A stretch of DNA of 64,000 nucleotides. It comes from Escherichia coli. Lineage in GTDB: Bacteria > Pseudomonadota > Gammaproteobacteria > Enterobacterales > Enterobacteriaceae. The stretch is from assembly GCF_009931435.1 (NCBI RefSeq), contig NZ_CP043414.1; one strand, 5' to 3'. Position 1 is the first letter of the stretch, and the number at the start of each line of letters is the position of its first letter. Below, in pieces: positions 15,001 through 18,000 of this stretch. The position numbers were made by a program.

Positions 15001-18000
15001 CCTTTCAGCGCAATTAACTGCTCTTCGGATACCCATTTGCCGGGAGAGACAATCATGATTACTTCGCTCATCGATTTCTTTATCTCTTACATCAGACGAG
15101 CGCCGGTTGCAGAATACCAGTCACAACCGGCGACAGTTGAACATTAAGAATCAGCCTGACTCGGGATCAGTTTTTGCCAGATAGCTGAAACGCATTTTGC
15201 CTGGTAACGGGCGTCATCAAGTGCATTATGGCGCTCACCTTCGAATGGAATAGCCGTTCTGGCATCGAAGTCTATGGCTTTCCCCAGCTCAACGATTGTG
15301 CGTACATCGCGATCGTTGTAGTAACGCCACGGGCAGGGGATCCCCTGCCGTTCGTATGAACGGCGCAAAATCGTGTTGTCGAAGTTGGCTCCATTTCCCC
15401 AGACCTGAACAAAAAATTCACCGGAGTTTTCGTCGATAAATTCCCGCAATTGTAACAGTGCATCATCTAACGGGATTTCATCGGTCATAATGGCAGATTG
15501 CGCTTCGCGTGATTGTTTAAGCCACCATTTAATGGTGTCCCGATCAATGACTCCGCCAGCAGTTTCCAGATCGATAGTCTTACTAAATTCCGGTCCCATA
15601 TCTCCGGTTTGCGGATCGAAAAATATTGCACCTATTGAGATAATCGGGGCATCGGGATTTTTTCCCATGGTTTCAAGGTCGATCATCAGATGAATCCCCG
15701 CTCTGCTGGTGGATGTGAGATTATGATGACCGTTCGCCTTAATTAAGGGATCTGACGCCTCGCCAGTTTCACTATCGCTGGCATGATGCTGATTGCCGCC
15801 AGTGTTCTCCTTGTGCTGATGCGCAGTGCCTTCCATTTCCTCCGGATCATTTTCCTGAACTTCAGGCTGATTCTCTCCATCGAATATTTCCTGGTATGTT
15901 GCGTCACCCATCACCGCACCACAATCAGGGCAGTTGCCGCCACCGCTATGACCGCAGGCGGTGCAGATCTTTTCCGGTTCCTGTTGCACTACTGGTTCAG
16001 GTTGTTTCGTTTCTGGCTCGTTTTGTTGCGTATTTGGGCTGTTTTGTTCCGCTTTCTGGTCGTTCTGTTCCGTTTCTTGCTGGTTCTGGTTCACAGAATC
16101 GCGGGTCTGGATCCCCTTAACCCATTTCGGATCATTCGGGTCGCTAATCCCTTCAACAAATTCACCACGTGATACTGCAAGCAGTTCATCGGCGTCAGGC
16201 TGGCTGATATTGGCTGCCTGCATAATTTTGTTTACTTCGTCAGCGGTAACTTTTACTGACCCTGGTTGTGCGGTCGTGTCAGATGCACCAGTATTTTGTT
16301 GTGAACCTGAGTATGTACCGTTTTTGCGGGCGAAATATTCTTCTTTCGTGATTTCAGTAGCCCCAGCAGACAGCGCCTTATCCAGACCAGAAAGTTTGTT
16401 TGCGCGACCGTATTTTTCGCCATCCTTGTCGGTGAAGAGGAAGTAGAACGGCCCCTCACGTTCTACAGATGGTTCGACTTCCACTTTGCATTCGGTTTTT
16501 TCGTTGTCTGGAATTGCCGTTTCCACTGCATCAGTTTCTGGTACTGGCGACGAGAGAGTATCAGTTGCGCTCTGATTTGTTCCTTCATCTTCAAACACGC
16601 CCTTTGTAGTCAGGTATTCAGTAATGTATTTGTTCAGTGCCACAGGGTCTTTGTGAATGTCGATCGGACGTTCACGGACAAGGCCAAAAATAGTCTGGCG
16701 GTCGTAGCGAAGGGCATCAGGCTGTTTGCGCATTGATGCCGAGATACGCTTCCAGTCTTCGCGGTCGTTGTCGATAACTTCATTTTTTGCCCAGCGATGG
16801 ATGCTGCCGTCAATGTTTCCGGCATCTACATCACCAGGCCAGAGAGCGTAGGCCAGTTCGTCATCCAGTGTTTTCCATGTCTGCTTGTATTCGCGATGAA
16901 TGGCAGCAATGACCGGGTTGATTTTTCCTGTTGAATTTTCAGTGTGCTGTTGATTGGCTCTGGCGCGGGCGAGATCAACAACAGACGTGTATTTTCCGGC
17001 TTCCTTGCGTTCACCTTCGCGACGTTTTTTCCAGATGCGCATCTCTGCCTGAATTTCGGGCCATTTGGCACCAGGCTTACATTTATGCTTAACCCACCCG
17101 ATGGCATGCAGCTTAAGCTCCGGATACATAGCGTTAACTTCTGGCATTTTCATCAACGCTTCAACGATATGGCCGTCGAATGTTGCCATGTCTTCCTGCA
17201 ACAATTCCTGTGCGCTAATCACCATATCAACAGTGATGTTTTCACATGTGTGGAACTTAACCATGACAGCGTTCTGTACTTCAGGGGCTAGGTTGTCAAA
17301 AGTGACGTTCATCGGATCGGATTCAGTCTCGACCGGGACAAAGGAAGCAGACGCCTCATCCCAGCGGTTTTCCTGCATATATTCAGCATCCCAGGAATCG
17401 AGGGCAGGGCGGGGTATACCGGGTTTATCCTCGCAAACAAGAAATTTATAAGCGCAGTCCTGAGCAGCCGGATAATGTTCCAGGAATTGCCAGTGAAATT
17501 TTGCGCGGGCGCGACGTTCATCACCGGCTTCAATGGCAGTGGCTACAGCGACGGCACCTTCTTCCTTTATTGCCTGTTCGTCCGGAATGGCGGCGCAAAT
17601 AAAGACTTTACTCATTTTGTTTTACCTCATTACAGATTTAAGGGTGAACAAATCCCTGCCATTGCTGGCATATAAGAATGAAATCGGATGTTTATTACGG
17701 AACTGTTTTAAAGACCTGCCGGGATTTCGTTATTATCCTGGTGAATAACTTTATCGACCGGGTAACAGTTACCGGGAATTTTCTGTTCGGTTGCTGCAGT
17801 CACACACTCCTGCATTGTCCTGTGAACACTGACTGCAATATCAACTGGCTCTCCGGAAACAAGAAAAACTGTCAGAACAAGTGCAAATGCTGTATTCATT
17901 GCCAGCATCCTTTTTGTATCGGACGTAAACGGGCCAACATTGAAAGAATGCATATTTTATTTAATAGCTCCCGTTCGTGTTTTCTCTTGTTAATGGCATC

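Follow-up and report, generated by a model that had tools for sequence, protein, structure and literature searches.

The tethers known as Q-linkers, reportedly described by Wootton and Drummond in 1989, are said to be hydrophilic, Q/E/P-rich interdomain segments of 15-25 aa in regulatory proteins. In-frame coding minisatellites (VNTRs) give rise to repeat-length polymorphism in bacterial or phage surface or tail proteins. The linker described here shares with the Q-linkers a Q-, E- and P-rich hydrophilic character and a tolerance of insertions and deletions, whereas the classical examples lack a recognisable tandem DNA repeat and the present linker is 47 aa long, N-rich, internally periodic and located in a phage nuclease. 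With the VNTRs it has in common a unit that is a multiple of three and whole-unit changes, of the kind produced by slippage or unequal recombination, in which the frame is kept. However, its units are old and diverged (74% identity), they appear to change at a low rate, and this cytoplasmic protein is under no evident pressure to diversify.

The nuclease itself has two relevant relatives. Rv2179c is a single-domain protein. The protein encoded in the window (the whole stretch of 64,000 nucleotides of Escherichia coli DNA that was analysed) matches the full length of the model for the Rv2179c-family 3'-5' exoribonucleases (PF16473) and has the DEDDh motifs, but it carries ~640 extra residues of scaffold and tether upstream, and its exonuclease is predicted from sequence. 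RecE of the Rac prophage has the same order of elements, namely SRGEFVxGISDPNDPKWVKGIQTRD, a Q/E/N/P linker, CxxCG...CPDCG and an acidic tail, and is ~80% identical over aa 470-625 of the window protein. In RecE the N-terminal domain is Exonuc_VIII and the nuclease is a 5'-3' enzyme of the PDDEXK type, and recT follows recE in Rac, whereas the window protein has YdfE_N/YdfE_C and a predicted DEDDh 3'-5' nuclease, with no recT neighbour. The N-terminal part of RecE, which contains the homologous region, enhances linear-linear recombination (review PMC11611040); the only general statement returned by our literature search describes the RecE N-terminal domain as being of unknown function.

Host gene, domain order and prophage setting

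The repeat lies in frame in an 823-aa ORF (Table 1), which is 99.8% identical at the DNA level to an APEC O78 gene annotated as "exonuclease" (WP_000048464.1), while K-12 derivatives match just the N-terminal 31% of the gene, adjoining an IS2. The results from profile searches indicate that aa 642-813 match PF16473 (225.1 bits, cut-off 27; E = 6.6e-67), and PHROG 2082, "exonuclease", matches the protein also. The DEDDh motifs can be read from the sequence as D646-x-E648, D746 and H796-x4-D801. A PADLOC run on the window protein returned only its generic DEDDh model, matching the exonuclease domain, and hence no assignment to a defence system. In a PDB sequence search the same domain found the remote relatives 8KEL/8KEN, "exodeoxyribonuclease" (E = 1e-6), and no entry covered the linker or the scaffold. 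Homologs at least 90% identical to the window protein carry PF27430 (YdfE_N), PF27432 (YdfE_C) and PF16473, the YdfE assignments being precomputed annotation on 120/120 homologs (90-95% identity, full coverage) and not on the window protein itself. Judged by this domain content, the protein is a member of the YdfE family with a predicted C-terminal DEDDh 3'-5' exonuclease domain, in line with the sequence-only reading, which had placed the repeat in a prophage exonuclease. Our literature search found no paper on Rv2179c-like prophage exonucleases and none on the function of YdfE.

The proposed domain order would run from YdfE_N and YdfE_C through a small module, the repeat linker, a zinc-ribbon-like knuckle and an acidic tail to the DEDDh exonuclease. 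The small module is ~80% identical to RecE aa 455-485 and holds all ten invariant columns (A480-W498) of a 46-sequence alignment, with G489-W498 invariant. The cysteines after the linker, C551, C554, C562 and C565 (CxxC-x7-CxxC), are also kept in RecE and may bind zinc, although all zinc-ribbon Pfam matches are sub-threshold (DZR E = 0.006; 17 bits vs a cut-off of 27). The acidic tail has a net charge of -12 and falls on the disordered side in a charge-hydropathy analysis.

The integrase and excisionase genes (13505..15071) adjoin the exonuclease gene and mark the prophage end at rspB. At the rspB site the exonuclease gene has xis/int on one side and ydfD/dicB on the other, with the DicF RNA close by, a setting that supports the prophage origin assumed from the sequence. 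The prophage is a lambdoid one of the Qin type. The gene is found in ~88% of complete E. coli genomes, is often multicopy, and reaches 10 copies per genome; the 5,426 closed E. coli genomes hold copies at about 9,500 places.

Many records name this enzyme RecE or exodeoxyribonuclease VIII. The results from BLASTP indicate that aa 262-625 of the window protein are related to aa 278-591 of RecE (E = 3e-61), with the homology stopping at aa 625. The NCBIfam equivalog model for RecE (NF007259) gives 273 bits vs a whole-protein cut-off of 1269, in a match limited to aa 245-626; PF06630 and PF12684, both present in RecE, are lacking; and the neighbours are xis and ydfD/dicB, without a recT partner. 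By these sequence attributes the window enzyme is not RecE/exonuclease VIII. A widespread mis-annotation is thereby corrected, as genes of the present kind, often labelled exodeoxyribonuclease VIII, carry a different nuclease of predicted opposite polarity.

Table 1. Features of the exonuclease locus, in window coordinates.
Feature	Position	Strand	Basis
Prophage integrase	13505-14800	minus	ORF and annotation of near-identical APEC O78 locus
Excisionase	14820-15071	minus	ORF and annotation of near-identical APEC O78 locus
823-aa YdfE-family prophage exonuclease gene	15144..17615	minus	ORF; intact counterpart of truncated K-12 Qin ydfE
Predicted Rv2179c-like DEDDh 3'-5' exonuclease domain (aa 642-813)	15177..15692	minus	PF16473
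Acidic, His-rich low-complexity tail (aa 567-640) leading to nuclease domain	15696..15917	minus	Composition, charge-hydropathy
Zinc-ribbon-like motif CTACG-x6-CPDCG, directly after linker	15918..15965	minus	Sequence motif
Imperfect in-frame 21-bp (7-codon) tandem repeat	15969-16091	minus	TRF, codon-shuffle test, unit coordinates
U1	16071-16091	minus	21-bp unit
U2	16050-16070	minus	21-bp unit
U3	16029-16049	minus	21-bp unit
U4	16008-16028	minus	21-bp unit
U5	15987-16007	minus	21-bp unit
U6	15969-15986	minus	18-bp unit
Conserved small module (aa 455-505, ...LLAVSRGEFVEGISDPNDPKWVKGIQ...), upstream of linker	16101..16253	minus	Alignment, RecE homology
Region homologous to non-catalytic part of Rac RecE, repeat linker included	15741..16832	minus	BLASTP, DNA match to recE

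The 21-bp repeat and the linker it encodes

TRF returned a single array at 16002-16085 with a period of 21, 4.0 copies, 74% matches, 11% indels and a score of 87. The sequence-only reading had proposed units of roughly 22 bp, present in 3-4 copies at 16006-16092. A tandem repeat does occupy that position, and four units are clear, but both TRF and autocorrelation give a period of 21 bp, and the lower edge lies ~37 bp beyond 16006, at 15969, because two degenerate units add to the four clear ones. The peptide quoted in that reading occurs exactly in the coding-strand translation, which corresponds to aa 509-549 and reads, unit by unit, NQNQQET / EQNDQKA / EQNSPNT / QQNEPET / KQPEPVV / QQEPEK. 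The DNA has an autocorrelation of 0.598 at lag 21 and of 0.543 at lag 42, with the other multiples of 3 giving 0.30-0.43, while that of the peptide is 0.41 at lag 7 and 0.33 at lag 14, the remaining lags being <=0.18. Among shuffles of the same codons, 0/20,000 reached the observed value at lag 21, and 0.03% did so at any period from 6 to 45; the periodicity is not explained by the Q/E/N-rich composition. The array thus combines periodicity beyond composition, a unit that is a multiple of 3 inside a genuine ORF, and whole-unit copy-number polymorphism among alleles, the three attributes of an in-frame coding tandem repeat.

The 41 aa of the repeat comprise Q11 E8 N6 P5 (Q 27%, E 20%, N 15%, P 12%), with a net charge of -6 and with two V and one A as the only hydrophobic residues. 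In charge-hydropathy terms the linker (H 0.239 vs a boundary of 0.470) is far on the disordered side. The columns that flank it on one side (the invariant G489-W498) are the most conserved in the protein, and CxxC-x7-CxxC flanks it on the other. The Q/E/N-rich linker noticed at the outset is therefore present, and its hydrophilic, Q/E/P-rich character is that of a Q-linker-like disordered linker. Taken together, the repeat encodes an acidic, Q/E/N/P-rich interdomain tether that is predicted, from its composition, to be disordered. An AlphaFold2 model of the full protein (46-sequence alignment) gave aa 501-550 a pLDDT of 26-35 without secondary structure; however, the whole model is poor (mean 47.8), with confident residues only at 101-203, 243-343 and 386-437, and since the exonuclease fold, too, scored below 50 and was unresolved, the linker values are not independent support for disorder.

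The linker makes up ~1/3 of a low-complexity connection of roughly 135 residues. The expected end-to-end distance of a random coil is related to chain length by a scaling law, and going from 26 to 54 aa would shift this distance only from ~3.3 to 5.1 nm, a modest change that speaks for near-neutral length variation. Synonymous and non-synonymous changes number 5/5 in the 47 linker codons, compared with 4/4 and 1/4 in the 40-codon flanks; by these matching counts the linker DNA appears to be under no additional constraint beyond coding. Substitution variability is slightly higher in the linker (0.23 bits) than the protein mean (0.19 bits).

Linker-length alleles among homologs

Copy number varies among homologs, as the sequence-only reading had supposed it might, so that an identical number of units everywhere is not what the family displays: linkers of 26, 33, 40, 47 and 54 aa were found. 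Among 118 full-length 90%-identity clusters, 94 have a linker of 47 aa, 21 of 40 aa and 3 of 54 aa, and partial-protein clusters contribute linkers of 33 aa (four) and 26 aa (two). A few lengths, 22, 41 and 48 aa, are off this ladder. The modal 47 aa (~80% of clusters) occurs also in relatives of merely 56% identity (P0246). KWVKG is replaced by KWVKEIE or KWVKRIE in 41/120 full-length homologs, all 41 of which have 47-aa linkers. RecE-type genes likewise vary across the linker stretch, by 0, -21 or -42 nt, and the Rac RecE copy examined has a 33-aa linker, two units shorter than that of the window protein.

In 117 aligned full-length homologs, every 7-residue indel falls within the linker, the sole other indels being one of 4 columns that follows aa 223 and one of a single column that follows aa 342. 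DNA alignments of the alleles indicate linker indels of +21, -21, -42 and -63 nt. Three distinct duplications of 7 aa (QKAEQNS, QNSQNAL and ERNYQKA) and at least 3 distinct deletions of 7 aa were recognised, and from the alignments the length changes arose several times independently.

Closed genomes verify the +21, -21 and -63 nt alleles. Strains 55989 and O111:H21 15A, both closed, share the +21 allele at 100% identity. For the -63 allele, 32 O157:H7 genomes give an exact match in one piece (the >=99% identity band lists 40, but it inflates variant counts, since a parent allele that is nearly identical also scores high there once its two pieces are joined). For the -21 allele reading ETKQEPEKA, that band holds ~130 records, an upper estimate, mostly of EHEC such as O26 and O103, with exact matches in one piece both among the first-ranked records and ~80 records down. 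Another, different -21 allele occurs in strain tcmA_3. The linker also distinguishes intact annotated genes of 798, 816, 820, 823 and 830 aa. No closed genome yielded the exact -42 allele (L004) or the exact -21 allele of L006, both of which were confined to draft contigs of <1 kb. In a spread genome sample, 28/29 full-length gene matches are exactly 2472 bp; length variation is infrequent and stably inherited within clonal lineages. Variation of the linker is real and common, and is of an ordinary kind for protein linkers.

Origin and significance of the length variation

The junctions are informative as to mechanism. The duplication in E. coli 55989 and the deletion in L006 affect one and the same 21-nt segment, GCCAGAAAGCGGAACAAAACA, and both junctions lie at a GCC microhomology of 3 nt; outside the indel there is 1 mismatch in the former and 0 in the latter. 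The -63 allele has an 11-nt microhomology, AGCCAGAAACG, at its junction and 0 mismatches outside the indel, and the -42 allele (L004) is an exact derivative of the window's allele with a 5-nt junction microhomology. The L004 and L006 alleles each differ from a genuine 47-aa allele by the indel alone. We consider it very probable that the repeat is what past duplications, in frame, of a 7-codon unit have left in the DNA and that the interdomain tether shows a slippage-type length polymorphism. Because the units still share short in-register identity, misalignment may occasionally gain or lose whole units, and slipped-strand mispairing during replication, or unequal recombination between the several prophage copies of one genome, would do so by 21 nt at a time. 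We infer either mechanism from junction anatomy, and the end products fit slippage and unequal recombination alike. Gain or loss of a unit would always preserve the reading frame. Since the protein would tolerate linkers of 26-54 aa, the alleles could then persist and be inherited clonally. The changes in length are probably near-neutral, although retention of 47 aa in ~80% of clusters could reflect weak stabilising selection instead of neutrality.

One might argue that the length is functionally tuned, i.e., that the number of units alters the reach or autoinhibition of the nuclease and that lineages carry selected lengths. Length variants recur independently, some are fixed in successful lineages (O157:H7, 32 genomes; O26/O103, ~130 records), divergent relatives keep the modal length, and the homologous RecE region lies within the N-terminal part that enhances linear-linear recombination (PMC11611040). 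Clonal inheritance, however, yields fixation in a lineage without selection, 7 aa is only ~5% of the roughly 135-residue tether, and the linker is barely more variable than the protein mean, with synonymous and non-synonymous counts like those of its flanks; tuning is thus an unlikely explanation. The alternative that the coding sequence doubles as a cis element of the DNA or RNA, for instance as a series of protein-binding sites or as a regulatory RNA, has in its favour a spacing of ~21 bp that resembles iterons or operator arrays and the fact that the gene belongs to a lambdoid prophage's early leftward operon. We regard it as very unlikely, as synonymous sites in the linker are as free to change as those of the flanks, units have been deleted or duplicated at several positions, no Rfam family matches at the repeat, and the period is exactly 7 codons and stands out more strongly over background in the peptide (0.41 vs <=0.18, lag 14 excepted).

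That there is no true repeat, and that a low-complexity Q/E/N/P stretch built from few similar codons merely looks periodic, might be suggested by the strongly biased composition and by units just 74% alike. Such a view is hardly tenable given the codon shuffles, none of which reached the lag-21 autocorrelation, and given natural indels that are whole 21-nt multiples in register with the units. Nor do we give any appreciable credence to a contingency (phase-variable) locus, in which a hypermutable repeat would frequently switch the gene or the protein made from it: an intragenic tandem repeat of polymorphic copy number would invite that interpretation, but the units are diverged, one identical allele is present throughout the 32 O157:H7 genomes, and 28/29 full-length matches are of one size. 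Copy-number changes never shift the frame because a unit of 21 nt spans whole codons, and the locus does not behave as a switch because its alleles are stable within clonal lineages. Misassembly of a multi-copy prophage gene in short-read drafts was also conceivable as the source of the variants, since the first variant contigs were just 849-932 bp and a genome may hold up to 10 copies. With the +21, the -63 and two -21 alleles in closed chromosomes as intact genes (830, 798, 816 and 820 aa), this has practically nothing left to recommend it as a general explanation, and an artefact is still possible for the -42 allele of the single sample L004 and for the -21 allele of L006.

The practical consequences are modest and the understanding of repeats or linkers is unchanged. 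In the stretch shared with RecE, natural length variants separate dispensable spacer from the functional candidates, i.e., the invariant GISDPNDPKW module and the CxxC pairs. Rather speculatively, and with little expectation that it is correct, the module, tether, zinc knuckle and acidic tail might form a nuclease-agnostic cassette in which repeat number tunes nuclease reach. Lambdoid prophages would pair this cassette with a nuclease of one or the other polarity, 5'-3' in the PDDEXK enzyme RecE and 3'-5' in the DEDDh enzymes of the YdfE family, and tether length would set the reach of the nuclease from the docking point of the scaffold. If so, the allelic series of 26-54 aa would offer a handle on the role of the RecE N-terminal part in linear-linear recombination. 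Because the gene is so widespread among complete E. coli genomes (~88%) and frequently multicopy, the 21-nt ladder can also serve as a cheap marker to separate prophage lineages, the -63 allele denoting one O157:H7 group and a -21 allele the O26/O103 EHEC.

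A 21-bp tandem repeat in a prophage exonuclease gene

The sole tandem array in the window has a period of 21 bp (4.0 copies, 74% matches, score 87). The sequence-only reading had proposed imperfect repeats of about 22 bp at 16006–16092; the array itself is present, while the period is 21 bp and the repeat continues approximately 37 bp past that lower end. On the coding strand it is read as the 7-codon units NQNQQET, EQNDQKA, EQNSPNT, QQNEPET, KQPEPVV and QQEPEK. DNA identity is 0.598 at a lag of 21 and 0.543 at a lag of 42, versus 0.30–0.43 at the remaining in-frame lags. Because a Q/E/N-rich peptide is encoded by few similar codons, periodicity was compared with 20,000 shuffles of the identical codons; none matched the lag-21 value, and only 0.03% matched it at any period. 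Composition alone is thus ruled out as the source of the periodicity, and the tandem repeat is genuine.

Features of the window and of the encoded protein
Feature	Window position	Strand	Residues (aa)
ORF hosting the repeat (823 aa)	15144–17615	minus	
Tandem array	16002–16085		
7-codon units	16091–15969	minus	509–549
Segment aligned with RecE	15741–16832		262–625
Acidic, His-rich tail after the Cys motif			567–640
Rv2179c-like exonuclease domain			642–813
Confident AlphaFold2 part	17007–17315	minus	101–203
Confident AlphaFold2 part	16587–16889	minus	243–343
Confident AlphaFold2 part	16305–16460	minus	386–437
DicF antisense sRNA (RF00039, 76.7 bits)	18259–18310	minus	
sok-type antitoxin RNA (RF01794, 110 bits)	23941–24115	plus	
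cspA-type thermoregulator 5' leader (RF01766, 158.8 bits)	27593–27985	plus	
cspA-type thermoregulator 5' leader (RF01766, 113.8 bits)	30496–30881	plus	

The host protein matches the Rv2179c-like 3'-5' exonuclease domain over the domain's whole length, scoring 225 bits where the cut-off is 27, and the DEDDh motifs are present; it is also matched end to end by PHROG 2082 ("exonuclease"). Its neighbours at the rspB site are integrase, excisionase, ydfD and dicB, so that the assignment to a prophage exonuclease holds. Homologs with 90–95% identity also carry the Pfam families YdfE_N and YdfE_C, and in K-12 derivatives the N-terminal 31% of the gene alone remains, adjoining IS2, as the annotated ydfE remnant. 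The window gene is therefore an intact version of ydfE, a gene of the Qin prophage. A literature search found no work on YdfE or prophage Rv2179c-like exonucleases. The gene was matched in 4,787 of 5,426 complete E. coli genomes, at a median of two and a maximum of ten places per genome. It is also a frequent IS target, with IS3-family elements interrupting homologs in strains 504211 and O111:H- 110512. The presence of the DicF sRNA beside the dicB/ydfD homologs establishes that this is a Qin-type region for immunity and cell-division inhibition; deeper in the prophage, the sok-type RNA points to a hok/sok module and the cspA-type leaders to a pair of genes for cold-shock proteins.

Variation in linker length

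Among 118 full-length clusters at 90% identity, the linker measures 47 aa in 94, 40 aa in 21 and 54 aa in three, and partial-protein clusters additionally include 33 aa (four) and 26 aa (two), with a few off-ladder lengths (22, 41 and 48). Repeat number therefore alters linker length, as had been suggested, and the copy-number comparison across homologs proposed as a check returned differing numbers, not one number in all. In DNA alignments the differences are exactly +21, -21, -42 and -63 nt, and against near-identical 47-aa alleles the indel is the sole or almost the sole difference, its ends falling within short identities between units. One and the same 21-nt segment, GCCAGAAAGCGGAACAAAACA, has been duplicated in one allele and lost from another, in both cases at a GCC microhomology; the -63 junction has an 11-nt microhomology, AGCCAGAAACG; and one -42 allele can be derived exactly from the sequence in the window, over a microhomology of 5 nt. 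Duplication has affected three different units (QKAEQNS, QNSQNAL and ERNYQKA), and deletions of a single unit are of at least three kinds; the events are recurrent. In 117 aligned full-length homologs, every 7-residue indel lies within the linker, and elsewhere indels occur at just two places, 4 columns following aa 223 and 1 following aa 342. For substitutions, the linker is only slightly more variable than average (0.23 versus 0.19 bits). The linker is thus an indel hotspot, not a hypervariable region.

Since the variants first came from short contigs of draft assemblies, closed genomes were examined. E. coli 55989 and O111:H21 15A carry the +21 allele at 100% identity, within an 830-aa gene. 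For the -63 allele, 32 O157:H7 chromosomes give an exact match in a single piece, within a 798-aa gene; the four following matches (O111:H8, O103:H2, O103 and one unserotyped strain) carry the near-identical 47-aa parent allele (99.6%, in two pieces), and further O157:H7 strains also have the modal spacing, not -63. The -21 allele ETKQ/EPEKA occurs within an 816-aa gene in up to ~130 records, chiefly EHEC such as O26 and O103, and strain tcmA_3 holds a different -21 allele. Searches of closed genomes recovered neither the exact -42 allele (nucleotide record L004) nor the -21 allele of record L006. Matching record lengths suggest that the chromosomes of tcmA_3 and E9 may each hold one 47-aa and one 40-aa version of the linker, located in separate prophages.

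Whole units are probably gained or lost either by slipped-strand mispairing or when diverged direct repeats recombine unequally. Both mechanisms fit an in-frame unit, whole-unit steps, microhomology at the junctions, gain as well as loss of one segment, and recurrence at different units. A contingency locus was rejected: the frame never shifts, the units are just 74% alike, and alleles are identical in dozens of genomes of the same lineage. A DNA-level element superimposed on the coding sequence is unlikely, as synonymous and non-synonymous changes occur at the same rate in the linker (5/5) and the flanks (4/4 and 1/4), several positions allow a unit to be dropped or added, and the repeat matches no Rfam family. 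By the random-coil scaling law, the expected end-to-end distance changes only from ~3.3 to ~5.1 nm over the full 26–54 aa range, within a low-complexity connection of ~135 residues in total, and the length changes are thus probably near-neutral. The 47-aa linker persists in P0246, a relative with 56% identity, so weak stabilising selection may still act. Q-linkers and in-frame coding minisatellites are features of the same kind; with period, extent and enzyme family corrected, the sequence-only reading is confirmed as an observation and supported in its interpretation, and the length variation is a new, well-documented case of a familiar phenomenon.

Predicted disordered linker and conserved flanks

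The linker contains Q11, E8, N6 and P5 in 41 residues (net charge -6), in agreement with the Q/E/N-rich character claimed for it. Its mean hydropathy of 0.239, against a charge-hydropathy boundary of 0.470, places it far into the disordered side, while the flanking module, Cys motif and exonuclease domain fall on the folded side; disorder is inferred from composition. The AlphaFold2 model gives it no secondary structure (pLDDT 26–35), a result set aside because the model is poor everywhere, the exonuclease domain included. Confident modelling (pLDDT 79–92) is limited to a pair of helical domains and one small beta-alpha unit; these presumably correspond to YdfE_N and YdfE_C, and a PDB sequence search found no solved structure matching the three segments.

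In a 46-sequence alignment taking in relatives of 20–60% identity, the invariant columns are solely A480...G489-I-S-x-P-x-D-x-K-W498, a short way upstream of the linker. Directly downstream is the zinc ribbon-like CTACG-x6-CPDCG, for which zinc-ribbon matches are sub-threshold, followed by a second, acidic tail (net charge -12). P0162, an otherwise full-length Escherichia albertii homolog (818 aa), is 5 aa shorter and lacks the first CxxC (…EKACTGGGSCPDCG…), so the four-cysteine knuckle may not be strictly necessary.

Relation to RecE

The linker is most closely related to the matching segment of RecE, the Rac prophage exodeoxyribonuclease VIII. The shared region aligns with aa 278–591 of RecE (record L002; E value 3e-61), with ~80% identity from aa 470 on and a single gap there of 14 aa, exactly two units. 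Across the linker stretch, RecE-type genes from phage records differ from the window gene by 0, -21 or -42 nt. The window protein is not itself RecE: it scores 273 bits against the 1269 cut-off of the RecE equivalog model, lacks the Exonuc_VIII and PDDEXK domains and has no recT neighbour. Both proteins have the central scaffold, repeat linker, Cys knuckle and acidic tail, whereas after approximately aa 626 the window protein is a DEDDh 3'-5' exonuclease and RecE a PDDEXK 5'-3' nuclease. By sequence comparison, this is a domain swap between prophage nucleases. Many database records mislabel the gene exodeoxyribonuclease VIII because of the RecE-shared part, despite the different catalytic domain; the exonuclease label stands, with the family corrected to Rv2179c-like, YdfE-type, not RecE. 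In the literature consulted, the N-terminal domain of RecE is described only as having no known function, being dispensable in basic recombination, and enhancing the linear-linear kind (PMC11611040).

Two other mosaics are representatives at 50% identity. P0265 (901 aa) joins an Exonuc_VIII-like N-terminus to an Rv2179c-like exonuclease, with a Q/E-rich spacer and without the Cys motif. Together with the sharing with RecE, such mosaics hint at a nuclease-agnostic scaffold, its module, tether and Cys knuckle common to two nuclease types of opposite polarity, and this is the sole lead of wider interest. In P0255 (703 aa), the RecE N-terminal region breaks inside the Cys motif, between CNACGQTGGD and SALGH..., and gives way to a RecT domain (PF03837, aa 528–678); the protein is an apparent in-frame recE'-'recT fusion without a nuclease.
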